A DNA stretch of 64,000 nucleotides. Origin: Candidatus Poribacteria bacterium. GTDB lineage: Bacteria > Poribacteria > WGA-4E > WGA-3G. Positions 8,652-43,451 of the stretch are shown here, piece by piece; the first letter of the stretch is position 1, and every line of letters starts with the position of its first letter. The notes below the pieces were generated by a model. That model had not been told where the DNA came from. It ran no database searches and saw nothing but the letters and a program-made list of their open reading frames with translations. The position numbers and the translations under genes are program-made. The DNA is taken from positions 8,828-72,827 of the forward strand of contig JAJDXV010000098.1 of assembly GCA_022823085.1 (NCBI GenBank), read 5' to 3'.

Positions 8652-8717
8652 GAACACGATCTCCTTGAGATATTTGCCTATATTCTAACATAAAGGCGTA
8701 TGGTCTTTCAATATAAT

Positions 8718-8833: not shown

Positions 8834-9184
8834 AGTCTGGGAATGTAGGTGTGTCGTGGGTTGGTGGCACCCTTAAAACATTTAAAAGTATATATTAAAA
8901 TTGTTAAACAACAATTGGGGGTTTCAGGGTTCTTTGGAAAGGGTGAGCGTCTCTTTAAAGTGTTGTTTAATGATAAAGAAATAAAAAAGAAACCGCGCGG
9001 GCGTATAACTGGTAGGTGGTGTGAGGTTTGTGTCAAAGCCCATGGGGATTTAAAAATCTTCGGAGGTTTTACCACAGGGGGTTGATTTCAAAGGCGTTGT
9101 AGGGCATTTGGTGCACGGGGGATATTTGTTTGCGAATCTCTGTAACCTGCCTGGATATCTAACATTTTATCTCAGTGATTGATT

Positions 9185-9240
9185 GCTGGCATGCTGGCAC
9201 ACTGTCACGCTGGCGTGATGGCATGCTGGCATGCTGGCAT
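9185..9240. repeat. Seven consecutive 8-bp units (GCTGGCAT GCTGGCAC ACTGTCAC GCTGGCGT GATGGCAT GCTGGCAT GCTGGCAT)
   Basis: Second copy of the 8-bp periodic array. Here it is not followed by parA. Confidence 0.6.
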
Positions 9241-9644
9241 GTATACCCCGCTTGTAACTTTTTTCAGAAATTTCAGCCCCCGGCGCGTCAGAATTGTCCG
9301 TTTTGCCCGCAGAATACCACACCCAACAGACGGGAGAGAACCTGATCGAAAGGTAGTAGACACTGACACCACAAGCAGATAAGATGGCTTCTCGCGTCTT
9401 TGCTCCGTCGTCTGAGCCGACGCACCCTGATGCAGTTTCGATCGCAGAAAACGCCTTCAAAAAACGTATTAAACGTAATAATGAGAGAAAAAAACGCTAA
9501 AAACGCTAAAATAAACAGCGAAGGTGACAAAAGATGTTCTGTAACTTTCAGATAACACATTTTTACTTATCAGGTATCACGCGTGCATAATTCCCATTTC
9601 GTTATAAGTACGCTATATAGCGTTTTGGGAATTTTGCACGCGTG

Positions 9645-13086: not shown

Positions 13087-14520
13087 TCAAATATCAGAAC
13101 GGAAGAACTTCAGAAACGCCCCGGTTGTCAACGCCGCTAAAAAGAAACAGAGCAGAAGTACATCCACGAGAGAGTGACTCAACGTCTCAACTAACGAGGG
13201 AGTTTTTATGGCGGGGGGCTGCGTGATTGTAACAACATCGTCGGGTCTCATGATTCTTATAGAGACGTGATCTACGATTTTACTAAACAGCTCCGCATAA
13301 AGCATGCCATAATAATGCACGCTGGTGTCAAAGTAGTTGTTTCTTTTTACCTTTCCGGTCTGTGTTAAGTTCGTGACAAGATAAATAAGCGAAGAAGTTG
13401 GGGTGATGCGCGAGAGTGTCTCTCCGACCTGTTCTTGTCGCGCGATTTGACGTTTGTAATCCCGTTCAATTTTATCAGAGTGGTTTTGAAGTTTCGATCG
13501 ATATTCCTCTTCAAGAGGTTTGACACTTTCATCAATTTTTTTCAGTGCTTCCCCTGAGACTGCAGTAACACCTCTCTCATCGGGGGGGATCTCTCTGATA
13601 ATTTTCATTTTTTCCTTGTTGATTTGCTCATTGAAATCATCTCGCATGGCTGTTTTCTCCATGTAGATACTCTGCGCCGTTCGTGTGGGGACAATAAGTT
13701 TAGCTGTCAAAAATCCAACCCGGGGTGTAATTAACGCGGCGAACACCCAGACGGTAAAGGCAACGATGAGTGCTGTCTTGGAAGTGTCTAAGTAGGTAGA
13801 AATCACCGTGCCGATGGCGAAAAACACCGCGATGTAGAGCAGCGAGATAAGTGTCAGACTTAGGACTCGCGGGAAGATATCGGGTTCGCCGAGAGGAAAC
13901 CCCTGCCAGACGATTAACAGTAACCCGAACAGAAACGACACTAAGAAGGGCACCACAAACACAAGGTATCCGCCAATGAGTTTGCTCCATAAGAAGAGGT
14001 CCCGCGGGAGTGCGTTTGACAGGTTAATCCGCAACGTTCCGGCTTCTTTCTCCCCGGCAATAGCATCGAAGGTAAATAACAGTGCCAGTAGACTGAAGAC
14101 TGTGCCGACGACGAACAGAAAATCGAGATGCCCTAATAGATAGGAGACCGAGGAAGACAAGGCAGGTGGGCCTTGGGTGATTCCATTGCGAGTCATGCCG
14201 AGATAGCTCGGCAGCGTCTCACCTAATCCGTTTGCGAAGACACTCATGAGTGTGGGTTTGAGAAAAAGTTTGGAGACTTCGAGTTCGGGTTCCAAAGTGT
14301 CGTTGGGGTTCACGGTGGCTTCTTCGATATTTGCCAGTTTAACGGCTTCTTGGTAATCCACTAAGTTCTGGCGATAATTTTGGTAACTGATAGAAAGGGT
14401 CAGCGGGATGAGCAGGAGACACATCAAAAGGAGGGCGACGAACCTTGCACTCAGAATATGATGCATCATCTCTTTTTGAATCAATGTCATTAACATGGTA
14501 ACTTCTCCTCTATTTTTCAT
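13087..14520 (-). CDS. ABC-2-type transporter permease with a long cytoplasmic/coiled insertion
   Basis: Multiple hydrophobic spans (LLMCLLLIPLTL, FVVGTVFSLLALLF, GGYLVFVVPFLVSFLFGLLLIVW, ...) and a charged ~110-aa insert. Last gene of cassette 1. Confidence 0.45.
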   Translation of the reverse strand: MKNRGEVTMLMTLIQKEMMHHILSARFVALLLMCLLLIPLTLSISYQNYRQNLVDYQEAVKLANIEEATVNPNDTLEPELEVSKLFLKPTLMSVFANGLGETLPSYLGMTRNGITQGPPALSSSVSYLLGHLDFLFVVGTVFSLLALLFTFDAIAGEKEAGTLRINLSNALPRDLFLWSKLIGGYLVFVVPFLVSFLFGLLLIVWQGFPLGEPDIFPRVLSLTLISLLYIAVFFAIGTVISTYLDTSKTALIVAFTVWVFAALITPRVGFLTAKLIVPTRTAQSIYMEKTAMRDDFNEQINKEKMKIIREIPPDERGVTAVSGEALKKIDESVKPLEEEYRSKLQNHSDKIERDYKRQIARQEQVGETLSRITPTSSLIYLVTNLTQTGKVKRNNYFDTSVHYYGMLYAELFSKIVDHVSIRIMRPDDVVTITQPPAIKTPSLVETLSHSLVDVLLLCFFLAALTTGAFLKFFRSDI

Positions 14521-14583: not shown

Positions 14584-16209
14584 TCAAGGGGACAACAACG
14601 CCGATAGCTTTGGTTCATGTTTTGCCGGTTGATCTGATAGTTCCACGGTGCGATAAGGGCGTTCTTTCATCCACTGTCTAGGGGTCCAAGTTTTTGTAAA
14701 ATCAACCTCCGTGAAATCAGCGGCATCAATAATTTTAATATACACTTGGTCTGTTCCAGCAAATATGGGACTCTCATTGAGTTGATAGCCGAGTCGGATC
14801 CAATGCTTGTTAAGATAAGCTTCAACTTGACTGTGTCCGACAATCGTAACTTGATTGGGAGCCGATGGTTTCTCGTAAGAAAAGCTGCCAGCGACTCTTT
14901 CATCATTCAGGTTTTTAACCAGTCGCTTCCATTCACCTGTGCCTTTGTAATAATATATCAGGGGGACTCCCATGGTTACACGGGCAGGAATGCCGACGGC
15001 TCTCAACATTGTAGCAAGGAGGCGTGCCCGAGAAATACAGGCACCATATTGTTTTCGCTTAAACATTGAGTCACCAAAGTAATTCACCGCTAAAGCCTCT
15101 GTGACCTCTGCTTGGGTTACCTCCCTGCCTATGCTCTCAAAGAACGACCAGTCGGTAACGAGTTCTCCGTGCTGTTTATAAGTGTAAATAAAAGGGGCGT
15201 AAAGAGGAAGGGTTAATTTCATTTGCCCAACTTCGTGCATGAGTTTAGCTAGGACGTCTAATGTATTCGTTGCAGTGGATAGCATTTGCTGAATCTCCAG
15301 CTGCATTTCTGGTGAGTAATTCAGATCATAAGCAGGTGCAACATACTTTCTGAAGGATCCAGAGGGGGACTGATACGGATATGGTTCTGGAAGTAGAACG
15401 GGGGAAGCATACGGATAAACAATAACCTCTACCTTCTGATAGTCGGACTGCGTACTTTCCATAAGTCGTGCGTCTTGGAAAAGATCGTTCATCGCATCAA
15501 TATTCCAGGGCGGTTTTATATCAAGAACTGCCCTGATATTATAGGTATACTCTCTTCTCTCATCCCAATCTGTGTCGGATATCCCATCTCTATCACTATC
15601 AGCTAAGGTTGGATCTGTTCGATATTTGCAATACTCTTGATAATCTGTCAATCCATCCGCATCTGTATCAGAGGTTGTGGAGAGCGTGCCGAGTTGGGCT
15701 TCGAGTTCATCATCTAAGCCATCTTTGTCTGTGTCGCGTAGGGTTCCTGCATTAAATTTCTCGATGCGACTTTGCATTGTATGCGAGGGGGCGGTCATAA
15801 ACGTCAAGACATATTCATTGAGAGGTCTGCCCCATTTCCCTTTCATCAAGCCAGGGTCGTGGGATGTATTGTTTAAGTCGTCGTTCAAGACAATGCCATA
15901 AAACGCTTCTGGTTTTAACGGTTCTGTGAGATTCAAGGCTAAAATTGTTCGGTGTTCATCCATCCATTTGGGTGTGCCTTTGATCCGCATTCCTCGAAAG
16001 GTAAGGTGTTTTTCTTTTCTCATGGACTGATTAAAGACAAACCTAATTTGCCGTGTCTCAATTGGGACATGAGTTGCTGACATCGTTGGCACGGTTTCGA
16101 TAACTTTAGGGGCTGGCAAGAAACGTTTCACCAGAGATGGCAATAATGCCACGCAAAAAATTAGGATAAAAATAGTAAGGAGAAGCCGTTCTATTTTGAT
16201 TTTAGGCAT
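14584..16209 (-). CDS. Secreted/anchored protein: N-terminal Ig-like region, thrombospondin-type-3-like Ca-binding repeats, C-terminal transglutaminase-like cysteine-protease fold
   Basis: N-terminal TM/signal. DTDKDGLDD, DTDADGLTD and DSDRDGISD repeats. GACISRARLLATMLRAVGIPARV ... GHSQVEAYLNKHWIRLG fits the Cys/His pattern of the transglutaminase core. Confidence 0.55.
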   Translation of the reverse strand: MPKIKIERLLLTIFILIFCVALLPSLVKRFLPAPKVIETVPTMSATHVPIETRQIRFVFNQSMRKEKHLTFRGMRIKGTPKWMDEHRTILALNLTEPLKPEAFYGIVLNDDLNNTSHDPGLMKGKWGRPLNEYVLTFMTAPSHTMQSRIEKFNAGTLRDTDKDGLDDELEAQLGTLSTTSDTDADGLTDYQEYCKYRTDPTLADSDRDGISDTDWDERREYTYNIRAVLDIKPPWNIDAMNDLFQDARLMESTQSDYQKVEVIVYPYASPVLLPEPYPYQSPSGSFRKYVAPAYDLNYSPEMQLEIQQMLSTATNTLDVLAKLMHEVGQMKLTLPLYAPFIYTYKQHGELVTDWSFFESIGREVTQAEVTEALAVNYFGDSMFKRKQYGACISRARLLATMLRAVGIPARVTMGVPLIYYYKGTGEWKRLVKNLNDERVAGSFSYEKPSAPNQVTIVGHSQVEAYLNKHWIRLGYQLNESPIFAGTDQVYIKIIDAADFTEVDFTKTWTPRQWMKERPYRTVELSDQPAKHEPKLSALLSP

Positions 16210-16241: not shown

Positions 16242-17906
16242 TTAAAGAGTGAGTGTAGACAGTAGCCTATCGGCTTTATCGGCATCTTGGAGCAGATACC
16301 TTAGGACTGTCCGAATTTCCTCCGAGGTATGATCTGTCAGGAGTGTTTGCGCGACTCCTTCCTCAACGCGCTGCTTAAAAAGTCCGTCAAGTTGCATCGC
16401 CCCTGTTTTCGTGACATTCTGTCCCTTTTCGTAGTATTGGGCGAAAGCAACATCGGGATATTTTGGTTTTGTGCTTTGGTTTCTTTTCCTGTTAAGTTGA
16501 GAAAATAATGTGACGAAACGTTGTGCTGTTCGATCCCAAGAGTAGTTCTTGACGACTTGTCGGGCCTGAGTTGACAAAGTTTCCCTTCTCTCCTGATCCA
16601 CGATTAATGTGTGAATCTGTTCTGAAATGGCGGTTGTTGGCATCATAAACTTACCGGTCATGTCCTCTCGAGTAAGTGGGACGGATATTAGACATGCCGC
16701 CAGGTCTTCAGGTAACTTCGTTGAATTGAGAGCGATCCCCGGTACCCCGCACGCAAGTGCCTCAAGCACTATGGAGAAGGACGTGCCAATAACTGTTGGA
16801 AAAATGATAAGTTTGCAAGCGTTGTAAATCCAAGGGAGGGCGACGATATCCTCTGGTTGCTGAAGATTAATATAAAAGACATTAGGGTAGCGTTGATATT
16901 TCTGATGTGCGAGGATGGGGTCAAGAACGATGAAAACAACATCCTTGTGTAGGTTTGCCAACTCCGCTATCAGTTCTACGCTATTTTGGGGTTGGAAGCC
17001 ATTGAGGATTCCAACCACTGGTGCCTCCAGAACGCTTTTCTCTCCAACAATTGAAGCGACTATCTCTCTGGCGTGTTGATGCTTTTTCGGGGAATAAACT
17101 TGCGTATCCACTCCATTAGGGATAGTGTGCAGTGCTTTGGGAGGAAATGATTGGATCGCGGCCAACTCATCTTCTATCCAAGGCGTGTCGGGACAAATTT
17201 GGTCGAAATCCCGCCGGAGTGCTTGATGGCTTAGCACCCTGTTAAGCGTTGCTTCGCGCAGATTTCTATCACTATAGATGCGAGAAACGACGGGTATAGT
17301 ATTGTGCCGAAAGTAGTTCAACTCTTCGTAAGGATGCGGGGAAAGTGCGAGAATTCCGTTGCAGTCCCTGACGATGAAACGATTCGAGGCATGCGTCACC
17401 TGATTCGTTGATTCAAAAATGTCGGAGACGAATTGAATGCCGAGTTCCATGAGTTGTTCTCGTTGTGCCAAGGCTTTCGAGTCGTTATCAATTTCTACAA
17501 ATACTTCGGCATACTTTGCGAGTGCCTTCAACAGATTATAAATCTCAACATTTGTATTTGGACTCAAAATTCCTTTATAGTTCATAAAACTGTGAGGAAC
17601 AAATATCCTTAATCTATCCTCGGCTGATGTTGGTGGGAAAATCGGCACCCTTTCAGGTTCAAACAGAAGGGTTTCTATGTCCCCGCTCAATGCATTCAGA
17701 CTTCCAAGAATTTGTCCTTCCGAATATTGGTTCCCGAGTTTTTCAAGGATACGTGCGTTATCAGATGTGCCGCAGAGTTCCAGAATTTCTGCGGCGATGG
17801 CATCGATTTGAAATATTTCTCCTGTTTGAAGATTCGTGACGTACCAAATTCCGTCCTTTTCAAATTTGTAGATGTGTTGTTGAAGTGTCCTTGGAAATCT
17901 AATCAT
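16242..17906 (-). CDS. GT4-family glycosyltransferase with an N-terminal PqqD/RRE-like peptide-binding domain and a conserved C-terminal helical tail
   Basis: N-terminus HIYKFEKDGIWYVTNLQTGEIFQIDAIAAEILELCGTSDNARILEKL... (HKF..dg.yv.dl....i.e.d pattern of SPASM-maturase RREs). GT core ...TSFSIVLEALACGVPGIALNS. Tail VEEGVAQTLLTDHTSEEIRTVLRYL. Confidence 0.65.
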   Translation of the reverse strand: MIRFPRTLQQHIYKFEKDGIWYVTNLQTGEIFQIDAIAAEILELCGTSDNARILEKLGNQYSEGQILGSLNALSGDIETLLFEPERVPIFPPTSAEDRLRIFVPHSFMNYKGILSPNTNVEIYNLLKALAKYAEVFVEIDNDSKALAQREQLMELGIQFVSDIFESTNQVTHASNRFIVRDCNGILALSPHPYEELNYFRHNTIPVVSRIYSDRNLREATLNRVLSHQALRRDFDQICPDTPWIEDELAAIQSFPPKALHTIPNGVDTQVYSPKKHQHAREIVASIVGEKSVLEAPVVGILNGFQPQNSVELIAELANLHKDVVFIVLDPILAHQKYQRYPNVFYINLQQPEDIVALPWIYNACKLIIFPTVIGTSFSIVLEALACGVPGIALNSTKLPEDLAACLISVPLTREDMTGKFMMPTTAISEQIHTLIVDQERRETLSTQARQVVKNYSWDRTAQRFVTLFSQLNRKRNQSTKPKYPDVAFAQYYEKGQNVTKTGAMQLDGLFKQRVEEGVAQTLLTDHTSEEIRTVLRYLLQDADKADRLLSTLTL

Positions 17907-18000: not shown

Positions 18001-19752
18001 CTATGCCAAGGTGTTAAGAAAATTCTGGACCCGCTCAACGACTTGGGCAGCCTTTGACGTATCGTCTAAGACGTGTGTTAAAACGGCTTCGACCTGTTTG
18101 GGTGTGTGTCGTTTCAGCAATGTCAGTGCTAGGCCCTCTTCCATCGTTTGAACGTATGCCCCTTTTTGCTGTAGCGGTGTCTCCAGAGATGGCGTCAAAT
18201 TGAGGAGGAGTGCTCGGTTTTCGACTTGATTCTGAAAAGCATCAAAATAGGGAACGAAAGCGACAGATAGATCAGGCGATGTTCTGTGATTTTGTTTGAT
18301 TCTATTCAAATTTTGAAAGAGTTGAATAAGATGTTTCACACACCGCTCCCAAGTAAAAGCCAATGCCCGGGATCGTGCCTTCTCACCAAGTTCATGGCGA
18401 AAATCATCTTCAAGCAGAGAAACAATACCTTTAGAAAGTTCTGCCGCTGACACAGCGGCGGCGAACCCCGCCATGTCTTCTGAAAACTCCTTCGCAGGGA
18501 CAACTATTCCCGTTTCCCCGACAACCTCCGGCAATCCATCAAATCTCGGAACAACAGGAGGCACACCACATGCCATCGCTTCCAAGAGTGTGAGTCCGAA
18601 AGTCTCTTCTGCCGCCATAGAGGGGAAACAGTAAATATCAAAAGCGTTGTAGAGAGTCGGTAACTGTTTTCTGGGTAAAAAACCGGCATAGATTAAGTTA
18701 TCTGGCAAGGGACCAAACGAAGGTCTTAGTAAAAAATTCCCGCCCACCAAGAAAAGCAGATCGGGATGCATTTCAGCCAATTGGATAAAGACATGTGCCC
18801 CTTTCTCTGGCTGAAACCGCGAGAGAAAACCAACTGTTAACTTCTCCTCAATTCGCGTATCTTCAAGAAGTGTGGCGATCTCTGTTTTTGCCTTGGATTT
18901 ATTTAGGGGTCTGAAGGTATTGGCATCTACTCCATTTTGAAGCGTGTGAAAATGAGATGTATCCCCAACAAATCTTGCGTAGTATCTGGCAACAGAGTCT
19001 GAAGGTGCTGTGAAGGCATCATAGGCACGCATTATGGAATGATAGAACAGTGTCGTGCTGATTGCTAACCCTGCGTGTCCCCTCGGTGCATGATTCTGTA
19101 GGATAATGGGTAGATCGACTTCTCGGAAGAAAGGAACGAGGTCATAACTTCCCCAGCTTTGATGTGCCAAGATGCCGTTGACGCCAAGCTGATTTAACCT
19201 TTGGTTGAATCTTCGGGGTGATTGCAGTATTTCCTCTGCGGGCAGTCCCACTGTATAGAGGCCTGGAGCGATTTCTCCTTCTGTTTCCCCGGATAGGTAG
19301 ATATCAGCAAACTTTGAGAGACTTCTCGACATGTGATATAAAGCAACGTTGGTGCCTGCTTCAACTGTTTCGGGGTTTAAAAACCATGAGTCTTTACTTT
19401 GCGGGACATATATCTTTAACCGCTCGCTGTCCGCTGCAGGAAGACCGCCCCATGAAGGGAGAGAAAAAATTAATCCGTTACTTTGAAAATCACCAAGTAA
19501 TTCTAAGGTTTCGAGAACCAAATTCCTATCGTAGGTTTGACTCAACTGATTAATTAATTCTTGTGTTTCCAATATAGGTGCCAATTCCAGGGCATCCCAA
19601 GCAATTTGATTAATTTCAACTATCATGAAGCGAGAAAGATCTGCAACATAGAATTTATCATCGTGCTTGAATTTGTGAATGTGACATGTCTGGGTTGGGC
19701 ATTGAAGCATGGAAAACCCTCTTATGGAAAATGTTGATGCTATTGTGTTCAA
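18001..19752 (-). CDS. GT4-family glycosyltransferase with an N-terminal PqqD/RRE-like domain
   Basis: HIHKFKHDDKFYVADLSRFMIVEINQIAWDALELAPILETQELINQLSQTY...LELLGDFQSNGLIF. GT core EETFGLTLLEAMACGVPPVVP. Tail MEEGLALTLLKRHTPKQVEAVLTHVL. Closest paralogue is 36521..38266. Confidence 0.7.
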   Translation of the reverse strand: MNTIASTFSIRGFSMLQCPTQTCHIHKFKHDDKFYVADLSRFMIVEINQIAWDALELAPILETQELINQLSQTYDRNLVLETLELLGDFQSNGLIFSLPSWGGLPAADSERLKIYVPQSKDSWFLNPETVEAGTNVALYHMSRSLSKFADIYLSGETEGEIAPGLYTVGLPAEEILQSPRRFNQRLNQLGVNGILAHQSWGSYDLVPFFREVDLPIILQNHAPRGHAGLAISTTLFYHSIMRAYDAFTAPSDSVARYYARFVGDTSHFHTLQNGVDANTFRPLNKSKAKTEIATLLEDTRIEEKLTVGFLSRFQPEKGAHVFIQLAEMHPDLLFLVGGNFLLRPSFGPLPDNLIYAGFLPRKQLPTLYNAFDIYCFPSMAAEETFGLTLLEAMACGVPPVVPRFDGLPEVVGETGIVVPAKEFSEDMAGFAAAVSAAELSKGIVSLLEDDFRHELGEKARSRALAFTWERCVKHLIQLFQNLNRIKQNHRTSPDLSVAFVPYFDAFQNQVENRALLLNLTPSLETPLQQKGAYVQTMEEGLALTLLKRHTPKQVEAVLTHVLDDTSKAAQVVERVQNFLNTLA

Positions 19753-19850: not shown

Positions 19851-20069
19851 TTAGATTGCTGTAATTACAGTCCCATCAGGAAGGACTGTCGTGCTAGCTT
19901 GCGCGAGCGACTCGCTGAGTGTGAGTGCTGCTGCAAACGCTCCGATTGCGGCGGCGTTTTTGACACCGACACTACCAGTTTCAGAGCGGACGAATTCAGA
20001 AATGGTCTTTTTACTGACTGCTTTGATTCGGTTCAGTTCAGTTACTTTCACAGGTTTTTCTCCTTTCAT
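19851..20069 (-). CDS. Small Flp-prepilin-like peptide; candidate precursor/substrate of cassette 1
   Basis: MKGEKPVKVTELNRIKAVSKKTISEFVRSETGSVGVKNAAAIGAFAAALTLSESLAQASTTVLPDGTVITAI. A GTG 18 nt downstream has a better RBS (AAGGAG). It shares the F-x-x-SE-x-G-x-x-G-(V/I)-(K/R) plus hydrophobic stretch with 31197..31457. The promoter-like motif lies ~90 nt upstream. Confidence 0.55.
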   Translation of the reverse strand: MKGEKPVKVTELNRIKAVSKKTISEFVRSETGSVGVKNAAAIGAFAAALTLSESLAQASTTVLPDGTVITAI

Positions 20070-20153
20070 TTAGATTTTGAAAATCCCGTAGTCAAGGCAT
20101 CGCGAATGCGTTTGTTGACTTCGGGTTAATGTGGATTGAATCCACGTCCTTTC

Positions 20154-20191
20154 ATAATTAAGGACACAATTTTGCGGTGGAAAGGGTGCAG
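20154..20191 (-). promoter_or_regulatory. Conserved promoter-like motif, copy 1 (minus strand CTGCACCCTTTCCACCGCAAAATTGTGTCCTTAATTAT)
   Basis: One of 8 same-orientation copies; lies upstream of the small peptide gene. Confidence 0.5.
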
Positions 20192-20214
20192 AGTCGGAAG
20201 AAAAATCAAAAGGA

Positions 20215-21360
20215 TCAGAGGATTTGACTGATATCGACATCCCTGAGAAAAGAATGAACCATTCCCTTGGCGAGAAAGTTCACCAGTGCCCCTGCAACAA
20301 TCATGAAAGCAAAGGGGATCTTTTCTTGAATGAGCAAACTATTTCCAAACTTCAGAAAGCAGCCTTGCTCAGCAAGTCGCTGCAAGTCTGCTATTTGCGC
20401 CTGTGTCAATCCTTCGGAGGAAACATCGACGACAATATTATCTGCTGCTGGATTTGCAAAACCGACTGGGACCTTTACATGTATATCGGTTGCGTGTGGG
20501 CCTGGCATCCTGAGGATGCGTTCTGCGGGGATCATGTTAGGTTTAAGGGCTTTGATGGGTGTTGGCTTTGTAAACAAGGAACGGACGTAAGAACTGAATA
20601 TGAGTAGGCACAACGAAATTAGAAAAATATAGAAGATTAAACTCCCAAGGTCGATCAGCGATCGAATCAGTAAAAATATTGCCAGCGGGACAAAGAGCAT
20701 ATCAAATGCAAGTTGATACTTCTCTGGGATATGCCTTCTAACGCCCTTATTGAAGGCGAAGGCGATCATTACAAACAGGGCAAGTCGAAGGGCGAAGTCT
20801 AGCTCTATGCCGAGCCGTGATGGTATGTAAAAAGCCAATCCACCGACCGTTATATATGAAAACACTTCAAGGATGCGTCTCGGAAATTGTTTCAGTTGCA
20901 TCCGAAAACTTTCCGAAATTAATTGCTGCTGTAGCCGCAACGGCATTTTGTAAACTGCTTTCACAGTGACATAGATAAAAAACAGCAAAAAAATATTAGT
21001 CAGCAAAATCAACGGATAAAACTGCGTCTCTACAGTTTGGCTGAAGGCACTTGGGGGCATCAGTAAGATGATACCCCAAAACAATTTCGCATCTCCCGCT
21101 GCCCATATTCCTGTGTAAAACATCGCGAACGAGATCCCGAATCCGCCCAAAACGGTTGCGCAACTGTGAGCCCAGGTTATCTCACCTGCGGTTATGAAAA
21201 GTGCTTGACTGATACCGCCGAGAGCGATCAAAGTTAGGGTGTAGCTATTGGCAATTTTCCCATAGCGGAAATCGGTATAGCCTGTATAGAGCCCACAACT
21301 GAGGATCGCCAAGAATATTAGGTTTTCGTGTGTCAGAAGTTCAAAAATATTGATGTCCAT
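20215..21360 (-). CDS. Polytopic membrane protein with an A24 (prepilin/TadV-type) aspartic peptidase-like N-terminal half and an extra C-terminal domain
   Basis: ...YTGYTDFRYGKIANSYT... and ...GIWAAGDAKLFWGIILLMP... match the two Asp motifs of A24 peptidases. About 10 TM segments. The C-terminal ~110-aa soluble insert (MIPAERILRMPG...LTQAQIADLQRLAEQGCF) is shared with 33679..34815. Confidence 0.6.
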   Translation of the reverse strand: MDINIFELLTHENLIFLAILSCGLYTGYTDFRYGKIANSYTLTLIALGGISQALFITAGEITWAHSCATVLGGFGISFAMFYTGIWAAGDAKLFWGIILLMPPSAFSQTVETQFYPLILLTNIFLLFFIYVTVKAVYKMPLRLQQQLISESFRMQLKQFPRRILEVFSYITVGGLAFYIPSRLGIELDFALRLALFVMIAFAFNKGVRRHIPEKYQLAFDMLFVPLAIFLLIRSLIDLGSLIFYIFLISLCLLIFSSYVRSLFTKPTPIKALKPNMIPAERILRMPGPHATDIHVKVPVGFANPAADNIVVDVSSEGLTQAQIADLQRLAEQGCFLKFGNSLLIQEKIPFAFMIVAGALVNFLAKGMVHSFLRDVDISQIL

Positions 21361-21469: not shown

Positions 21470-22861
21470 TTATTTAATCCATTGCATGGTTTCTCGGAGT
21501 TTTTCCTTGGCTTGTGCGTAATCTCGGCGTGTCTGATAGTAGACGCGTTGTGCCTCTGTAAATTGCGCCTGCGCTTGAAAGGCATCGTTGTAGGTCAGAC
21601 CTTGATAGCCGGGGATTTCGACGGTGACTTCATCCAGGACGCGCTCAATCGTCCGCAGCTGCTGCTCGAAAATTCTCACCCGCTTTTCTTCAATCTCCAT
21701 CCGTTCTCTCGCATTCGCCACCTCACGATAGTCACGTCGCACCTCTACGCGGATTGACTTCGTTTTCTCAATGTACTCCAACTGCATTCGCTCGAGTTCT
21801 GCGACTTCTCGGGAGCGAAGGTTCTTCGTCTTATTCCCATCGTATAACGGGATGTTGAACTTAAAACCCAGTTCCCATCCGTCTTGGGTGCGTGGATTTG
21901 TCTCAAAGAGACTCGCCCCATCTCGTTCACGGTCGAGTATCACCGGGTCATAGATGGCTTTTGCGTCCCACGTCTGGTTCCCTGCCTGTTGCTCCAGGAG
22001 TACACTGAGATCCTTATAGCGTGCTTCGGCAGTGAGTTCAGGGAAGCGACTCCAGAGGGTCTCTCCGGCGAGACGTTCTTGACGCAGCATATCGCCTTGT
22101 AAATCGCGTAGGTCAAGACTGTTTACGATTGCGAGTTCAACGGCAGCTTCGAGCGTCACATCGTCGTCTGGAAGCGGTCGTGAAAGCACAACTTGTGTGA
22201 GTGGGTCAAGTCCAGTGAGACTGATGAGTTCAGCGGTGTCTACGTCGAGTTGTCGTTGGAGTTCATTGAGTGCAAGTTGCTGTTCTGAGAGTTCCAATTC
22301 TGTATTGAGTTGGCGAAGGAAGGGGATCCGCCTTTGGGTCTGCTCAATTTTTGTGCCTTCCAGTTTTTTTTCGAGTTCCACTGCAATGGCACCGCGTTCT
22401 TTAATCTCTTCTTGTGTGAGGATAATATTATGCCAGAGATTCCGGGTAGCGTAGACGATCTCCTTCTTGGCGCGTTCGTATTCAATCTCGGCTTTGCGGA
22501 CCTCTTCCTGTGCGTCATCAAGACCTCGGGGGATCTCCCCGAATTGCGCAAAGAGCATGCTCATCTGTGCGCGCGTGAGATAGTCTCTATCATCAATGTC
22601 GCCATCTTTTTGGCGTTGATATTCACCAGTGAGTCCTACCTGTGGTAGGTAAACGGCTTTCGACACACGAAGGTTGGCTTTTGCGCGTTCAACGACTTTC
22701 TCTGCTTTTTTGACCGTCTCGTTGTTTTGCAAAGCGAGTTCTATTGCGCGTTTTGGCTGAAGCGAAACGAGTCGCTGTGCTGAAACGGTGCCCGAAAGGT
22801 ACAAACTTATAGTTTGTGCGACAAGCAGATACACCGCAAGTGGGGTCAACCTTTTGTTCAT
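21470..22861 (-). CDS. TolC-family outer-membrane efflux protein
   Basis: Signal peptide, then two long coiled/beta repeats typical of OEP family proteins (LQNNETVKKAEKVVERAKANLRVSKAVYLPQV...). Confidence 0.7.
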   Translation of the reverse strand: MNKRLTPLAVYLLVAQTISLYLSGTVSAQRLVSLQPKRAIELALQNNETVKKAEKVVERAKANLRVSKAVYLPQVGLTGEYQRQKDGDIDDRDYLTRAQMSMLFAQFGEIPRGLDDAQEEVRKAEIEYERAKKEIVYATRNLWHNIILTQEEIKERGAIAVELEKKLEGTKIEQTQRRIPFLRQLNTELELSEQQLALNELQRQLDVDTAELISLTGLDPLTQVVLSRPLPDDDVTLEAAVELAIVNSLDLRDLQGDMLRQERLAGETLWSRFPELTAEARYKDLSVLLEQQAGNQTWDAKAIYDPVILDRERDGASLFETNPRTQDGWELGFKFNIPLYDGNKTKNLRSREVAELERMQLEYIEKTKSIRVEVRRDYREVANARERMEIEEKRVRIFEQQLRTIERVLDEVTVEIPGYQGLTYNDAFQAQAQFTEAQRVYYQTRRDYAQAKEKLRETMQWIK

Positions 22862-23006
22862 TGTGATCTCCATTTTAATAGTTATCAGCAGTCAGGTTGC
22901 TGCGCTTTCAGCGATCAGTAGATTGTGTGGCGGCTGTGGACGTTTGTCCCTACCCGAAAATCTCTTTGCTGAAGGCTGGCAGACCACCGACAGCCGAGAG
23001 CCATCA

Positions 23007-25250
23007 CTACCGTCGACTGATGCGGATTGTGACGATGACAATTCCAACCATGAGAAGTATCAACGCACCAAATAGCAATGTCGTCACCGACATTTGGGTC
23101 TTTGATTCAACCTGCACAGTGATCGAGCGGTCGCGTGCCTCAAACTTCCGGTTATCCACAGTGACTTCGGCGTTCAACTTCGCCTGATATTCGCCAACGC
23201 CAATGTCCGTAGGTGGACTCAGCGTGAGTTGTATTTCTGTTTCCTCATTCCGCTCCAACGATTTGACAACTTCAGGGACAAAGGTGTATTTCCAATCGGT
23301 GTTGACATCAACGATCATACGGATGTTGACGAGGTCGCGGGTGCCGATGTTCTGTAGCGTTGCTGTCATGTTGACTTCTTCGCCTATCTTGATGGTCTGG
23401 AATGCATTCGGCACGAATACTTCAATCTCTGGAACACCTTTTGGAATCAGTTCAAACCGCTCGACACCGCCTTGTATGCCTGCAATCCTATCGGCAGGTA
23501 AATCCAAACGATTGTTGACGCCGCTGAGTTCGGTTGCCTCCGTCTCATCTAACACAGCGACATAGAACTCAAGCGTGCTGTCGAGGTAGGAGGCATCCAA
23601 TTCTTCGGGCAGATAGACAATCAGTGACAGATCCCGTTTCGACTGTTCTTGTGTGAACTTCACCTGTGACTGCCGAGACTTCGTTTCTGGGTCTTGGAAT
23701 TCAAAGGAGAGGCGGTTGAGTAGATTAATGACGCGGAGTTGGAATGTGTTCTCCGTCTCTGCCAACCGATCGAGTGTCAAATCGTAAGTGACACTGCTCC
23801 CTAAGTTTCCCTCTTGCGAAAAGCGGAGCGAACTGACGTTTACGACATCAAGGGCAGACTCTTTTTGTAGATAGATGAGGCGTGTATCGGGTTCGGCGAG
23901 TTCGGGGTAGTTCAGCGATACCTTCAGACTCTCGACATCTTTCTGGAGTTGGAACGTCAATTCCACGGTTTCGTTGTAGCCGAGGACTGGGATTTTCTCT
24001 TCGTAGGGTTTGACGATATTTGTGTCATCAGTGACATCGAGTAAGGAGACATAGATTCCTCGAATCTCGTTCGCTGCTGCGATCTCTTCCGGCGTGGCAT
24101 TGCTCGGCATCGCCTCTGTGGTGGAGGTGTTCTTGAATTGGAGCGTCACCATCATCTGGTTCTCAAGGCGAAACTTTTTTGCACTGAGGATAGAGATGTA
24201 GCGGGTATCCTCTTCAAGGTGTATGTTATAGGGGTGGTCGGTGTCAAGGTATCTGAGATTGACGATGAGACTATCAATATTGCGGCGAAGTTCAAAATCA
24301 AGGTTTTTTTCCTGTCCATCTTTGAGTGTTGGAATTCGGTATTCATAGGGGAAGCCGATGATGGCTTGTGTATCGTCTTTAATGGAGACATAGATGTTGT
24401 TGATTTCTTGTGCTGTGTTGGTTTCTACTTCTTCTTTACCGCCATTTAGTGCTCCGTATGTGACGACAAGTTCCAATCGTCGCCGATCCTCTTGCTTGTA
24501 CCGCCTTGCGGAGACAATGGAGATATGCGGATCTTCTTGTTTGAGGTGGATATTCTTTTCCTCAATACGGTCGGAGTATTTTAGTTCTACAACGACATCC
24601 CGGACATCCTCTTTTATGAGTTCAAACTCCAATGTAATAGATTCACTCTCTTTAAGGGTCTCAATACGTTGTTCATAAGGTTCGGCGATAATTGCCCCGC
24701 TTGTTCCAAAAGCTTCTTGTTCTTTAATCGAGACGAAAATATCGTCAATCTGTGCGCTGATGATTATGTCTCTCCCTAACACTTTGGAACTCTCGACGAG
24801 TTTGACGGGGAGGGAGCTGTTCCGCAAGGTGATTGAGAACAATCCCTTTCCATCGGGTGATTCATACAAGTTTGTGTTTTCAACGCTGATATGCCAAGCG
24901 TTTTGGAGCGAGTTAAGTTCGACCTCTTGTAGTTTTAGTTTTGCTTGTTCGTATTCGGAGACGGCAAATTCATAATCTTCCTCGGCTTCATTCACCTCAG
25001 AGACGGTGACGATATTGTTTTCCTCGCGCATCATTGCCTTGAGATTTTCAAGTTCAACCAACTTTTTTTTCATTAAGTTTTCTTTCAATTCCATGTTCAA
25101 ACGCTCGACCTCTATCATAATCTGGCGGCTCTGTTCATCCTTGGTTCTTGGATGGTCGGCATCGGCAAGTTGCGGATCTTCTGCAAACGCCATCGGTGTG
25201 AGAAGAGACAGGAGCATTTTAATGGCGATCATAAAAGCGATCATACGCAT
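23007..25250 (-). CDS. Secreted, C-terminally anchored repeat protein (coiled coil, three ~100-aa tandem repeats, CARDB/NEW3-like beta-sandwich, TM anchor)
   Basis: ATG at 25250 lies behind AAGGAG. Signal MRMIAFMIAIKMLLSLLTPMAFA. Repeats are marked by IFVSIKEQEA..PYEQRIETL, IYVSIKDDTQ..PYEYRIPTL and IYVSLLDVTD..PYEEKIPVL. C-terminal LLFGALILLMVGIVIVTIRISRR. Confidence 0.5.
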   Translation of the reverse strand: MRMIAFMIAIKMLLSLLTPMAFAEDPQLADADHPRTKDEQSRQIMIEVERLNMELKENLMKKKLVELENLKAMMREENNIVTVSEVNEAEEDYEFAVSEYEQAKLKLQEVELNSLQNAWHISVENTNLYESPDGKGLFSITLRNSSLPVKLVESSKVLGRDIIISAQIDDIFVSIKEQEAFGTSGAIIAEPYEQRIETLKESESITLEFELIKEDVRDVVVELKYSDRIEEKNIHLKQEDPHISIVSARRYKQEDRRRLELVVTYGALNGGKEEVETNTAQEINNIYVSIKDDTQAIIGFPYEYRIPTLKDGQEKNLDFELRRNIDSLIVNLRYLDTDHPYNIHLEEDTRYISILSAKKFRLENQMMVTLQFKNTSTTEAMPSNATPEEIAAANEIRGIYVSLLDVTDDTNIVKPYEEKIPVLGYNETVELTFQLQKDVESLKVSLNYPELAEPDTRLIYLQKESALDVVNVSSLRFSQEGNLGSSVTYDLTLDRLAETENTFQLRVINLLNRLSFEFQDPETKSRQSQVKFTQEQSKRDLSLIVYLPEELDASYLDSTLEFYVAVLDETEATELSGVNNRLDLPADRIAGIQGGVERFELIPKGVPEIEVFVPNAFQTIKIGEEVNMTATLQNIGTRDLVNIRMIVDVNTDWKYTFVPEVVKSLERNEETEIQLTLSPPTDIGVGEYQAKLNAEVTVDNRKFEARDRSITVQVESKTQMSVTTLLFGALILLMVGIVIVTIRISRR

Positions 25251-25315
25251 TTTGATAATCTCCTTGGGGGTCCGATGCGCCAATGCGCGGTTTGACGCAT
25301 CGGAGGTGATAGAGT

Positions 25316-26050
25316 TTATGCGGCGGTATCTGCTTTGGGTGTGTATCCGGCGACGTACTGGAGATACAACGCCTCAAGGTTTTCTTTCAGGATTTCCTCG
25401 CGTGTGAGTTCCAGTTCGAGATTGCCTTGGACGAGAATACCGATGGTGTCGGCGATCTCCTTGGCGCGGAAGATGTCGTGTGTGGACATGAAGATGGAGG
25501 TGCCTTCCTCTTTGAGCTCACGCAGCAGATTCAGGAAATCCGCACCGCCTTTGGGGTCTAAGCCGGAGGTCGGCTCATCAAGTAGGACGGCTTTTGCGTT
25601 CTTCATAATTGTAATGGCGATACCGAGGCGTTGACGCATCCCTTTGGAGAAGGTTTTGACGCGTCGCGTAAACGCGGCTTCAGGTAATCCGACGCGTCCG
25701 AGTGTAGCATCGAGTTCTGCATTTGATACACTTTTGCGTCCGCCGAGTTTGGCGAAGAAGGAGAGGTTCTGCCGCGCTGTGAAGTTGCGATAGAGTTCTA
25801 CGTTTTCTGAGACGTAAGCGAGGTGCTTCTTCGCCTCGAGCGGAAACTTCGGGATTTCGATATCGTTTACGAATGCAGTGCCGCTTGTCGGCTCAATGAA
25901 GTTCAGGAGCATGGACATGGTCGTGCTCTTTCCAGCCCCGTTGCCACCGAGAACGACATAGATTTCGCCGTCTTCTACTTTCAGGTTGAGTTTGTTGACG
26001 GCTAAAACGTTTTCGTTGTAAACTTTCGTGAGGTCACGGGTTTTTAACAT
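25316..26050 (-). CDS. ABC transporter ATP-binding protein
   Basis: Walker A GGNGAGKSTT, signature FSKGMRQRLG, Walker B VLLDEPTSGLD. Confidence 0.9.
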   Translation of the reverse strand: MLKTRDLTKVYNENVLAVNKLNLKVEDGEIYVVLGGNGAGKSTTMSMLLNFIEPTSGTAFVNDIEIPKFPLEAKKHLAYVSENVELYRNFTARQNLSFFAKLGGRKSVSNAELDATLGRVGLPEAAFTRRVKTFSKGMRQRLGIAITIMKNAKAVLLDEPTSGLDPKGGADFLNLLRELKEEGTSIFMSTHDIFRAKEIADTIGILVQGNLELELTREEILKENLEALYLQYVAGYTPKADTAA

Positions 26051-26137
26051 CGGGTTTCTCCTCGGTTTTGTTTTCTTTTCTGTAGAGGGTGAACGGAAAT
26101 TTTTAAATTTGAAACACTACGTCATATCTCGCCCTAC

Positions 26138-26175
26138 ATAATTAAAGACACAATTTTGCGGTGGAAAGGGTGCAG
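26138..26175 (-). promoter_or_regulatory. Conserved promoter-like motif, copy 2
   Basis: Minus strand CTGCACCCTTTCCACCGCAAAATTGTGTCTTTAATTAT, ~85 nt upstream of the ABC ATPase start. Confidence 0.5.
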
Positions 26176-26516
26176 AGCAAGTTTTGTTAATTTTTCTTCA
26201 AAAGGTATGTTTTGCTGAAAAGTTGCTATTTATGGATTTTAGAGTTACTTAGACATTCTTGCTTTATCCATCTCGGATTTAAGAGTTCGCTTGTAGTCGT
26301 GCGATTCATCGCCCGTTCGTGTTCAACAACGGGCAATAAGCGGTTTCTCTCCTACAAACCAAAGCAGATACCGATACTTTGAAAGTGAATAAAGTGCTAT
26401 GAGGGCGAGATTAGGAAACTTCGCCAACGGAAATGGAGCGTTTGTGACGACTAAAGGAAGGGTGTGTGGTAAGTGTTGCCCCTCAGTTTTGGATGGGGAA
26501 GTGCGCCAGAAGTTTC

Positions 26517-26996
26517 TCAACAGGGTATTTTGTTGTGTTTGGTGGGAGGAAGTTTGAGAGGCTCCTTAATACGTCTGGCTTCATCAGGCGGAAACGCTTT
26601 ATACATCGAAGCCGGTTTATGCGTATTGAGATTATCGCAAACGAGAATAATCTTTTCAGCCACCGGGAAATGAACATCTATTAAGTCTCGACAGATATGC
26701 GCAAAATCAACAGCCGTGCGTTTGTCAGTAACTTCGACATGCCGAAATCCCTGAAGGGGTGCGAAAATCATAAACAAATTGCTGACGCCATTGCGTCGAT
26801 ATTCCGAATCATATCGACGTGGCAGCCCTTCAACAATAGGGAGAGGCTGCCGGGTTTCTTGAAGCTGTTGTTTACTTGTTTCATCAACGCAGACGACAGG
26901 AGCCGTGGCATCTTCAGGACGTTGATAGATTTCTAAGACATCTTCCATTGCAGCAACAAACTCCGCTGAGGCTACGGATTGGTGTGGATGGGACAA
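26517..26996 (-). pseudogene. IS630-family transposase fragment (DDE domain, truncated at both ends)
   Basis: VVCVDETSKQQL...YRRNGVSNLF...ILVCDNLNTHK is the DDE_3 pattern. There is no HTH N-terminus, no proper ATG, and the C-terminus is missing. Confidence 0.6.
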
Positions 26997-27608
26997 TTAA
27001 TCTTGTTGGTCCTCACCGGCTTGGCGCAAATCTGAGGCGAGTTTCTCAAGTTCAGATGCGACTTTTTTTACGTCAACATCTACGCCTTGAAGGACGAGTT
27101 GATAACAGAGGTCTTCCCACTTTTGCCCTCGCGCCCAGGCTATTTTACAGATCGCCAGCCAAATATCAGCACCAAGGGGTAGCAGGAGTTCTTGGATTTT
27201 ATCAAAACGGACACCTGCCAGAATACGTAGGGTCTCTCTAAGTGACTGACCCTCTTTAAGAACGAGATTAACAACCTTGCGACATTCCTTTGCAGTGAGT
27301 GCCTTGGTCTCTGTAACAGCGATAGCTAATAACCATTGGTCTTCTTCCCGCTTAAGTCTGGCGATTTGATAGCCTTGTTCAATACTGATTTTCCCCTCAT
27401 CAATTTTCCACCGGATGCCGCCTGGCAGTCCGAAGATGCGATGTCGCACAATCCAGAACTTGTCGGATCTCCCTATTTCTTGTGTGATGGCTTGATAGGT
27501 GCCGAAAGCCTGATATAAGACATCAACAGCGTCTGCAATTTCAGAGGGTTTTCTCTTCCCAGGTACATCTATAATGTTTTTCGCGGTTTTTAAATCCATC
27601 TGTCTCAC
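26997..27608 (-). CDS. ParB-like HTH DNA-binding protein (no ParB N-terminal domain)
   Basis: ITQEIGRSDKFWIVRHRIFGLPGGIRWKIDEGKISIEQGYQIARLKREEDQWLLAIAV...LTAKECRKVV resembles the ParB/Spo0J HTH region. Confidence 0.35.
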   Translation of the reverse strand: MRQMDLKTAKNIIDVPGKRKPSEIADAVDVLYQAFGTYQAITQEIGRSDKFWIVRHRIFGLPGGIRWKIDEGKISIEQGYQIARLKREEDQWLLAIAVTETKALTAKECRKVVNLVLKEGQSLRETLRILAGVRFDKIQELLLPLGADIWLAICKIAWARGQKWEDLCYQLVLQGVDVDVKKVASELEKLASDLRQAGEDQQD

Positions 27609-30865: not shown

Positions 30866-31039
30866 TAGAGTCCTCCATAGTAAATAAATGGATCCGCGCA
30901 ACGGATCAAATATTAGATGAGCACGAATGCAAAATATGCAAGGTCTCCGAAAATGCCGCTGTCCGACAAGGAGTATACCAAATGTGCGGGATTATGAGGA
31001 ATGTTTTAAATTTAAAGCACTCTTCTGCAATCTTACTCT

Positions 31040-31077
31040 ATAATTAATGACACAATTTTGGCGTAGAAAGGGTGCAG
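31040..31077 (-). promoter_or_regulatory. Conserved promoter-like motif, copy 3
   Basis: Minus strand CTGCACCCTTTCTACGCCAAAATTGTGTCATTAATTAT, upstream of the sigma-fusion gene. Confidence 0.45.
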
Positions 31078-31196
31078 AATGAAAAAAAAACAGAAAAAAC
31101 GAATTTTAAGTTAAAAATTACGTGCGTTTGATAAAGGGAAAGAGGCGTTCCCACTGCAAAAAACAGTGGGAACCAGAACACAGGTTAACCCATAGG

Positions 31197-38266: not shown

Positions 38267-38307
38267 GGTTTTTTCTCACCTTTCTATTGTTCACTAAGAG
38301 TGCTTTC

Positions 38308-43433: not shown

Positions 43434-43451
43434 TTCATGCCTCCCAAGATT

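Follow-up and report, generated by a model that had tools for sequence, protein, structure and literature searches.

Two small peptide genes in a poribacterial contig

The window analysed here is a 64,000-nt stretch of the genome of a Candidatus Poribacteria bacterium (assembly GCA_022823085.1, contig JAJDXV010000098.1, forward-strand positions 8,828 to 72,827). On its minus strand lie two gene modules, each of which encodes a small peptide (P1 or P2), an A24-family aspartyl peptidase (PEP1 or PEP2) and two glycosyltransferase-like (GT) proteins, GTa and GTb, with an N-terminal RRE, the recognition element of peptides that are made by ribosomes and modified after translation (RiPPs). Along that strand, Module 1 reads ABC ATPase, 758-aa exported protein, TolC-like factor, PEP1, P1, GTa1, GTb1, transglutaminase-like protein and ABC-2 permease. 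Module 2 reads nucleoside triphosphate (NTP) transferase, phosphomutase, GTa2, GTb2, PEP2, a cytochrome c554/DsbA-like (Cyt/DsbA) fusion, P2 and a fusion of an extracytoplasmic function (ECF) sigma factor with a BNR propeller. The analysis confirms that P1 and P2 are genuine and that they belong to a large and so far unannotated precursor-peptide family of Poribacteria that live in sponges.

The two peptides have in common the motif F-x-x-S-E-x-G-x-x-G-[VI]-[KR], a hydrophobic stretch after it, and then A-x-A, as a sequence-only reading of the window had noticed. Both open reading frames (ORFs) exist, the pattern [ST]E.G..G[VIL][KR] occurs twice in a six-frame translation of the 64 kb, in P1 and P2 only, and BLASTP aligns the two across the leader with E = 1e-4. 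P1 was called as an ORF of 72 aa (19851-20069, minus strand) reaching ATG 20069. Because an in-frame GTG at 20051 stands 7 nt past AAAGGAG and aligns with the Met of P1 orthologues (MKA[VM]ELNRIK), this GTG is most likely the true start and the product is probably 66 aa long. P1-type orthologues occupy the same place, between peptidase and GTa1, in loci L002, L004, L005 and L006. P2 begins MKKNINNKIKQF, in keeping with the family consensus.

A large family of leader-bearing peptides

The peptidase was used as a query to fetch 78 genome loci, which were searched for peptides with phmmer and then with a hidden Markov model (HMM) of the leader. The leader HMM detected 167 small leader-bearing ORFs, at most 8 per locus, and all 165 of those outside the window share the strand of the neighbouring peptidase. 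A database-wide profile search yielded 905 clusters at 90% identity, all of them annotated as hypothetical and without Pfam domains; members come mainly from Candidatus Poribacteria. At 50% identity there are 186 clusters, nearly all of 31-144 aa and matched at the N-terminus.

The family consensus reads MKxNLRGKIREF[LVI]xSEEG / [KR]VG[VI]K[SA]PLxLGVAxGSxLLAQAxVxTPxAxA / core. In column statistics anchored on the Gly, an anchoring that forces the Gly column itself, the positions F-6, S-3, E-2, V+2, G+3, K/R+5, P+7, G+11 and LL+18/19 are nearly invariant, and L+8 and Q+21 are well conserved; two independent MAFFT alignments, A2 and A7, likewise show an invariant Gly. Column entropy stays at or below 2.9 bits up to A-x-A (about +31) and rises to 3.3-4.0 bits beyond it. 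This boundary, together with the RREs of the adjacent enzymes, upholds the leader/core organisation that the sequence-only reading had suggested. A-x-A was the boundary site chosen in 110 of 141 peptides. Random pairs are 56% identical in the leader and 27% in the core, and paralogues of one locus 68% and 31%, so the divergence of C-termini first noticed between P1 and P2, whose tail holds 6 Cys, is a property of the family. The median core is 35 aa long. Cys makes up 14.6% of the cores, and its count is even in 84% of unique ones. The P1-type subfamily (window, L002, L004-L006) departs from this, with Cys-poor cores of 12-15 aa that have a central [DN]G/PG/HG turn and a hydrophobic I-A-[TI]-like end.

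Inspected by eye and by column statistics, the stretch that follows the Gly carries K/R at +1 and +5 and a hydrophobic run that spans +7 to about +24, and it reads as a canonical Sec-type n-h-c signal with an A-x-A end. Since such a signal follows the Gly, the variable core starts at A-x-A and not at the Gly, which corrects the sequence-only reading on this point. The PD40 propellers and solute-binding proteins of the cassettes have ordinary short Sec or lipoprotein signals, and no class III-like N-terminus was found on the other cassette proteins examined; the N-terminal extension is therefore particular to the small peptides. The idea that the PD40 propellers share the peptide leader was rejected on the same ground, as their Sec signals are short and ordinary. 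One apparent fusion of the leader to a PD40/Tricorn-type propeller was seen (L055 16583-17731). In three loci, ORFs that code for the N-extension alone and then stop (MQRHISPIAKQRISDFFTQEDGNVGRLLNFRLFC) lie directly upstream of the peptidase (L013 689-820, L017 9855-9974, L076 2080-2205); these could be truncated pseudogenes or leader-only peptides.

P2-type genes are preceded by a structured 5′ untranslated region (UTR). In about 60 loci (alignment A8), two hairpins lie upstream and are followed by the Shine-Dalgarno sequence GAAAGGAG. Explicit pair counts over 60 sequences show that 87% of cells pair, against 25-56% with slid partners, that changes occur on both sides in 11 of 13 pairs and that none of 500 shuffles reaches the observed covariation score, in a test that leans towards the two-hairpin model because the model was derived from the same sequences. 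RNAalifold recovered 3 pairs from the UTR alignment, and no Rfam family matches the P2-type 5′ UTR. Even with this bias, the result indicates that each peptide gene forms a conserved unit together with a 5′ leader of its own.

The A24 peptidase

PEP1 and PEP2 both exceed the Pfam A24 threshold (PF01478, gathering cut-off 26.5 bits). They share 30% identity across 365 aa, and the match takes in the whole of both proteins, with their C-terminal extension of some 250 aa. D30 (in T-D) and D90 (in [AP]-G-D-[AS]-K; GDAK in PEP1) are invariant in 43 homologues. PF06819 Arc_PepC is on record for several homologues, and the named homologues of the window peptidase are poribacterial. An AlphaFold2 (AF2) model of PEP1 (pLDDT 76, pTM 0.70) has the A24 helices, extra transmembrane helices, a beta-rich soluble domain (264-345) and a last helix. 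In a Foldseek search of this model against the PDB, the only match above 0.5 probability was the GxGD protease FlaK (3S0X; 0.80; TM-score on target 0.46), at an E-value of no more weight than 0.36. No NCBIfam model matches the peptidase, and among solved structures neither the leader profile nor that of the peptidase had a significant match.

The association between peptide and peptidase is reciprocal and evolutionarily deep. When loci were fetched by the peptides instead, a peptidase was present in 10 of the 11 having at least 11 kb, and the exception stops 1.5 kb past the peptides. Subtypes are paired as well, P1-type peptides with PEP1-type peptidases and P2-type with PEP2-type. The substrate motif fits cleavage after the Gly and before the hydrophobic segment. 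The sequence-only reading had cast A24 peptidases as the enzymes that cut this motif, and a dedicated A24 gene does stand beside each peptide, which lends that idea much more weight; the cut after the invariant Gly remains putative.

PibD of archaea is an A24 peptidase that acts on solute-binding proteins. A comparable service to the solute-binding proteins adjacent to the A24 genes was rejected, as those carry lipoprotein signals. In many cassettes, a gene for a UbiE-like class I S-adenosylmethionine (SAM) methyltransferase lies immediately upstream of the A24 gene (L022 9056-9982; L080 11586-12482; L083-L087), which recalls the fused N-methyltransferase activity of PilD-type prepilin peptidases; the window has no such gene.

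Glycosyltransferases with a peptide-recognition domain

The enzymes belong to family GT4 (PF00534/PF13692). Each of the four GTs in the window, like its homologues, begins with a domain of some 85 aa whose pattern is hKF..dg..YvaDL....ivevn.v.wdiL.l....t.eeiv..L...Y....i.eal..L..Le..GLLf. When 28 of these domains are combined in a profile, it matches residues 4-82 of the sactisynthase CteB (PDB 5WGG/5WHY), which we take to be the RRE of CteB, with E = 8e-14. Pfam PqqD is matched by 15 of the 28 domains, and single GT sequences match SCIFF/ScfB-type maturase models in the N-terminal part of the model.

GTa1 and GTa2 retain the GT4 motif E-x7-E (ETFGLTLLE and ETFGLTVLE, respectively), and GTb1 and GTb2 are without it, which suggests a pair of one catalytic and one degenerate partner: GTa would be catalytic, because it alone keeps the motif, and GTb non-catalytic or substrate-holding. 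Given the RREs and the mutase and nucleotidyltransferase of the cassette, leader-guided glycosylation of the cores is the most economical reading of these enzymes.

Composition of the cassettes

Positions of the peptides, their parts and the cassette genes are given in Table 1. A tblastn comparison of window proteins with the 78 loci gave 50 loci with the GT pair, 55 with the Cyt/DsbA fusion, 41 with the ECF-sigma/BNR protein and 34 with the phosphomutase. All these genes are co-directional, and the cassette, which recurs in about 50 of the 78 loci, has the order GTa-GTb-(peptide)n-A24-Cyt/DsbA-(peptide)n-NTP transferase-phosphoglucomutase (PGM)-ECF/BNR. In this order, small leader ORFs stand beside homologues of the GTs.

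The Cyt/DsbA fusion has four CxxCH haem motifs. Its gene accompanies Cys-rich cores in 55 loci and is missing from Cys-poor P1-type loci; this correlation supports an extracytoplasmic fate of the peptides. Many genomes have, after every peptide gene, a separate gene for a PD40/Tricorn-type beta-propeller (about 330 aa, ordinary Sec signal), which gives tandem pairs (L022 834-9066, 13842-14843; L080-L087). The window has no such partner genes.

Table 1. Peptides, peptide parts, cassette genes and related elements of the window (positions counted from its first nucleotide)
Feature	Position	Strand	Remark
P1 precursor peptide	19851-20051	minus	66 aa counted from GTG 20051
P1 N-extension	M1-G26, 20051-19974	minus	ends SETG
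P1 Sec-like segment	S27-A52, 19973-19896	minus	ends AQA
P1 core	S53-I66, 19895-19854	minus	STTVLPDGTVITAI
PEP1, A24-family aspartyl peptidase	20215-21360	minus	381 aa; immediately upstream of P1; PF01478 31.4 bits
GTa1, GT4 with N-terminal RRE	18001-19752	minus	E-x7-E intact; probable start ATG of MLQCPTQ, 19710
GTb1, second RRE-bearing GT4-like protein	16242-17906	minus	without E-x7-E
ABC ATPase (P1 module, upstream)	25316-26050	minus	same order in L002, L004
758-aa exported CARDB/NPCBM_assoc protein (P1 module)	23007-25283	minus	same order in L002, L004
TolC-like outer-membrane factor (P1 module)	21470-22873	minus	same order in L002, L004
Transglutaminase-like protein (P1 module)	14584-16209	minus	same order in L002, L004-L006
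ABC-2 permease (P1 module)	13087-14520	minus	same order in L002, L004-L006
P2 precursor peptide	31197-31457	minus	86 aa, inside a longer open frame
P2 N-extension	M1-G18, 31457-31404	minus	ends SEVG
P2 Sec-like segment	R19-A48, 31403-31314	minus	ends AEA
P2 core	S49-S86, 31313-31200	minus	38 aa, 6 Cys
Structured 5′ UTR of P2	31458-31537	minus	hairpins TTTCCCAA...TTGGGAAA and GCTGG...CCAGC, then Shine-Dalgarno GAAAGGA
PEP2, paralogous A24 peptidase (P2 module)	33679-34815	minus	378 aa; PF01478 28.0 bits
GTa2, RRE and GT4 (P2 module)	36521-38266	minus	E-x7-E intact
GTb2, RRE and degenerate GT4 (P2 module)	35096-36505	minus	without E-x7-E
Cytochrome c554-like multihaem and DsbA/GILT-like thioredoxin-fold exported fusion	31773-33644	minus	between PEP2 and P2
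NTP transferase	41296-41991	minus	sugar-nucleotide supply; recurs in cassettes elsewhere
Phosphogluco/phosphomannomutase	39815-41365	minus	sugar-nucleotide supply; recurs in cassettes elsewhere
Fusion of ECF sigma, membrane segment and BNR/Sortilin-type propeller	27941-30901	minus	directly downstream of P2
Intergenic repeat copies	20148-20209, 26132-26177, 31034-31095, 38302-38363, 38391-38452, 39499-39560, near 56035, near 57507		

Proposed maturation

The reading that we prefer, with a probability of about 0.6, is that P1 and P2 are RiPP-like exported precursors with a composite leader, cut by the A24 peptidase after the Gly and glycosylated by the RRE-bearing GTs. From comparison of the sequences we infer the binding of the leader by the RREs, the glycosylation, both cleavages and their order, the export and the candidate biological roles. 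The N-extension (about 18-26 residues, basic and then F-x-x-[ST]-E-x-G) would be bound in the cytoplasm by the RREs of the two GT4 proteins, with GTa acting as the catalytic partner and GTb as the non-catalytic or substrate-holding one. Ser, Thr or Cys of the core would be glycosylated with sugar nucleotides supplied by the mutase and nucleotidyltransferase of the cassette. The Sec-type signal (Lys/Arg, a hydrophobic core of about 15 residues, A-x-A) would insert the precursor N-in/C-out, and the A24 peptidase would cut after the invariant Gly on the cytoplasmic face, as prepilin peptidases do, removing the recognition handle. Signal peptidase I would then cut after A-x-A and release the core outside. 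The P2 core would be oxidised with the help of the cytochrome/DsbA-like protein. The P1 core, predicted to be a hairpin-like peptide of 14 aa without Cys, may pass outward via the ABC and TolC-like genes of its module. The role of the peptides may lie in envelope defence, in signals sent to the linked ECF-sigma sensor, or in antimicrobial or host-directed activity.

Several observations weigh against this scheme. The invariant F...SE.G could be purely a recognition sequence for the RRE and not a protease site. A-x-A alone would suffice for release, which leaves the extra A24 cut unexplained, and we know of no established precedent for Sec transporting a peptide that is already glycosylated. 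The thioredoxin-fold domain of the Cyt/DsbA fusion reads C-P-[FY]-[GA], with one Cys, at the position where CxxC is usual; this holds for each of the 63 BLASTP alignments with homologues from the fetched loci. In six loci of the PEP1 type (L007-L012), the GT pair and the peptidase are present, but neither the HMM nor loose regular expressions detected a peptide within 10 kb; their layout is GTa1-GTb1-transglutaminase-ABC2-NTP transferase-PGM-peptidase, with copies of an intergenic repeat after the peptidase. A promoter and terminator scan of the P1 flanks gave no signal of note, and the scans around P2 were likewise uninformative. Finally, the GT RRE profile has no detectable similarity to the N-terminus of the HxsB-like enzyme found with the same leader type: a common RRE is unsupported at an hhalign probability of 0.7%, in a low-power test with a single sequence.

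Kinship with Hxs precursors

The leader is akin to that of HxsA3-type precursors, judging from profile matches and distant gene neighbourhoods. The NCBIfam model NF038309 (His-Xaa-Ser repeat protein HxsA3; cut-off 65 bits) matches 23 of 32 leaders weakly (best E = 3.6e-4) within the first 50 or so profile positions. No peptide reaches the cut-off: the best score is 31 bits, from a Chloroflexota relative, poribacterial leaders score at most 24 bits, and P1 and P2 have no match at E <= 1. The Chloroflexota peptide has HxS-like repeats and lies just upstream of a peptidase of the family (L015). Its relatives read MNVPKKVTDFIVLDEG, then NIGRK...AxA, then a Cys/His-rich part, and their loci run ECF sigma, HxsB-like radical SAM/SPASM enzyme (333 bits against a cut-off of 370), peptide, lipoprotein solute-binding protein, A24 and Arc_PepC peptidase, and HxsD. 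A more remote peptide, P0326, has clear HxS repeats and comes from an archaeal-looking locus (A24, HxsD, HxsD-like, radical SAM, peptide, radical SAM) whose peptidase (L101) is 25% identical to PEP2 over the full length (E = 2e-13). The peptidase of another distant locus, L105, is 37% identical to PEP2 over the full length, and other remote subfamilies combine GTa-GTb-A24 with a thiol oxidoreductase. The leader type and the A24 subfamily are thus the constant elements across distant subfamilies, and the tailoring enzymes are exchangeable. This constant pairing is the strongest argument, if an indirect one, that the peptidase acts on the leader.

HXS has been shown, in the only experimental study known of an Hxs system, to be a periplasmic anti-phage system (Li et al., 2026; PMC13128918), in which the signal-peptide-bearing effector HxsA is matured in the cytoplasm and then exported (PMC13128918). 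Like the Hxs precursor (HxsA3), which is matured by cytoplasmic RiPP-type enzymes and acts in the periplasm, P1 and P2 are small precursors with an N-terminal export-type leader. The cassettes may be a Poribacteria-specific anti-phage offshoot, an HXS-like envelope defence in which periplasmic peptides, elsewhere paired with PD40 propellers, block phage entry and hypervariability reflects an arms race. This account concerns the biological role and is compatible with the proposed maturation. The weak HxsA3 matches, the relatives that adjoin HxsB-like and HxsD genes, the experimental precedent and the hypervariable cores in tandem arrays speak for it. However, the His-Xaa-Ser repeats seen in the remote relatives P0218 and P0326 are missing from P1 and P2, as is a peptidoglycan-binding domain; the window cassettes tailor with RRE-GT4 pairs and have no HxsB/HxsC radical SAM or HxsD gene; and no PADLOC model matches the ten cassette proteins searched. 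The published system relies on a peptidoglycan-binding effector of 214 aa, lacks an A24 peptidase and is 99.7% confined to Pseudomonadota (PMC13128918). On balance, the defence account is unlikely, but it keeps a real share of the probability.

The proposed maturation of P1 and P2 is most fittingly placed with Hxs-related, RRE-dependent peptide maturation, as a variant whose conserved partner is an A24 peptidase. A bolder version holds that an A24 peptidase was recruited as the dedicated leader peptidase of a RiPP-like family, in which one leader type is served by interchangeable modules: in Chloroflexota and archaea these would be radical SAM enzymes of the Hxs type, and in Poribacteria pairs of RRE-GT4 proteins. 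In sponge symbionts the family would have branched out into hundreds of hypervariable, probably glycosylated, disulfide-rich exported peptides. On this version the peptides would form a new RiPP class, and A24 peptidases would gain a new non-pilin function in bacteria. We advance it tentatively, at a little under even odds.

Possible alternatives: extended signal peptides and pilins

A second alternative is that the peptides are ordinary Sec-secreted small proteins, mostly disulfide-rich, with an extended signal peptide, and that the A24 peptidase and the GTs are mere neighbours that act elsewhere, for instance on envelope glycans. The extended signal peptide region (ESPR) of autotransporters is a model for such a leader. 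In its favour, the Gly is followed by a textbook n-h-c signal with A-x-A, and variability begins exactly at A-x-A; GT4 enzymes, a mutase and a nucleotidyltransferase would also suit polysaccharide synthesis, and some peptidase loci have no detectable peptide. On the other side, the RRE, a peptide-binding domain, is present on all the GTs, and the peptide-peptidase co-occurrence is reciprocal and outlasts the replacement of the GTs by radical SAM/HxsD in other phyla. The lack of class III-like N-termini on the other cassette proteins examined also speaks against it. We regard this alternative as improbable.

The leader motif is also in register with the Flp F-L-K-D-E-S-G, and the sequence-only reading had likened it to the Flp prepilin motif while noting that Glu-Tyr is missing. 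The absence holds across the family: of 115 leaders, 104 carry Lys and 9 carry Arg at +5 from the Gly, and Tyr is missing from +6. Like the Flp/Fap pilins processed by TadV/CpaA, the leader ends in F-x-x-[DS]-E-x-Gly before a hydrophobic segment, and a dedicated A24 peptidase without a methyltransferase domain is nearby, with a predicted cut after the Gly on the cytoplasmic face. Unlike Flp, the family has Lys/Arg at +5, an A-x-A end to the hydrophobic segment and a hypervariable remainder; unlike TadV/CpaA, the peptidase is about 380 aa long, with extra helices and a soluble beta-rich domain. PF04964 (Flp_Fap) matches neither P1 nor P2, and none of 32 leaders at E <= 10, while four Flp sequences that served as positive controls score 55-80 bits. 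In hhalign, the leader profile aligns with Flp pilins in the expected register (NKIKQFLTSEVG before RAGIR with KFVTRFLKDESG before ATAIEY) over 19 columns, at a probability of 8.8% (P = 0.0038). A Pfam scan of window genes, covering 7.3-49.3 kb, found no Tad ATPase (T2SSE/TadA/CpaF), TadB/C platform or RcpA secretin, and Tad assembly genes were likewise absent from the Pfam-annotated neighbourhoods of 17 places with peptide-bearing contigs. Because of the weak hhalign result, the missing PF04964 match, the Lys/Arg at +5 and the lack of Tad genes among those scanned or annotated, the resemblance is one of function and motif, and membership of the Flp family was rejected.

Pilin-like subunits of Flp/Tad or another type IV kind would be cut by A24 after the Gly, keep A-x-A uncut and form a fibre with variable Cys-rich tips. 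The register, the TadV-like lack of a methyltransferase domain in the peptidase and a mature size after the Gly of 40-68 aa agree with this. Such a fibre is very improbable, however, given the points above against Flp membership, the absence of an assembly ATPase, platform or secretin from the genes scanned or annotated, and a small-x-small site exactly at the conservation boundary, which favours cleavage by signal peptidase. That the ORFs are chance frames with a coincidental motif, a thought prompted by their small size and by the lack of a library family above threshold, is refuted by the comparative data, namely hundreds of homologues with conserved start, Shine-Dalgarno sequence, strand and position, a protein-level conservation pattern with an invariant Gly, and compensatory changes in the structured 5′ UTR of P2-type genes.

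Relation to other modified peptides

Glycocins such as sublancin and glycocin F are disulfide-bearing ribosomal peptides glycosylated on Ser, Thr or Cys by a dedicated glycosyltransferase, and their clusters (sun operon) include genes for thiol-disulfide oxidoreductases. They differ from the present family in using a GT2 enzyme (SunS-type), double-glycine leaders and C39-peptidase ABC exporters, where the family has RRE-GT4 pairs, a composite class III-like/Sec leader and an A24 peptidase, with glycosylation only predicted. The window genes that were scanned contain no Peptidase_C39 domain.

The GtfA/GtfB enzymes of accessory-Sec serine-rich glycoproteins are a cytoplasmic GT4-type pair, one of them degenerate, acting on a substrate with an unusually long signal peptide, a likeness of architecture only. 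GTa2 has a weak match to the GtfA model TIGR02918. GtfA/GtfB lack an RRE, their substrates are huge adhesins and not peptides of 66-90 aa, and SecA2/SecY2 are absent here.

Individual ingredients of the proposed maturation have precedents, since a survey of RREs noted RRE-GT2 fusions and precursors bearing a Sec signal (PMC12710340). DUF2282 precursors with DUF2063-associated RREs have a Sec-dependent signal peptide and undergo RRE-assisted modification in the cytoplasm before export (PMC12710340). They resemble P1 and P2 in combining a Sec signal with RRE-assisted enzymes, but the chemistry and the enzymes differ, and neither an N-extension nor an A24 peptidase is described for DUF2282 (PMC12710340). 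Literature searches brought up no account of this system, and no paper connecting Hxs, RiPPs or Poribacteria to A24 peptidases. The combination of peptide, A24 peptidase and RRE-glycosyltransferase thus appears not to have been described before.

If the proposed maturation is correct, A24 peptidases would have a third job beyond pilins and archaella, as leader peptidases of modified peptides, and the composite leader would couple cytoplasmic tailoring to Sec export. Poribacteria, dominant uncultured symbionts of marine sponges, would have a large unannotated repertoire of at least 905 clusters of hypervariable small exported peptides, which are candidates for host or phage interaction, ECF-sigma signalling or antimicrobial activity. 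The Hxs anti-phage system would, in turn, be tied to a wider, taxonomically scattered family with exchangeable chemistry.

Intergenic repeat and flanking genes

An intergenic repeat of 46-62 nt, with the core AAAATTGTGTCCTTAAT on the minus strand, occurs in eight copies in the window, all in one orientation and mostly before gene starts. It was found in 22 of 101 fetched loci, with no specific placement upstream of peptide genes, and could be a promoter or a repetitive extragenic palindromic (REP)-like element. A peptide-specific promoter was rejected, as a copy lies within 650 nt upstream of the stop in 2 of 190 peptide genes and copies occur elsewhere in the window.

Upstream of Module 2 (window 42132-49272) are genes for a MacB-type permease, two ABC exporter proteins, a PRMT-like arginine methyltransferase and a GT28-type glycosyltransferase. 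Module 1 is surrounded by mobile-element-like genes (window 7338-12401 and 26517-27608); its flanks encode a Rep3-type replication initiator, a 918-aa protein with a BT4734-like N-terminal domain, a DDE_3 transposase fragment and a ParB-HTH/DUF7119 protein, the last of which adjoins the ECF-BNR gene in five loci.

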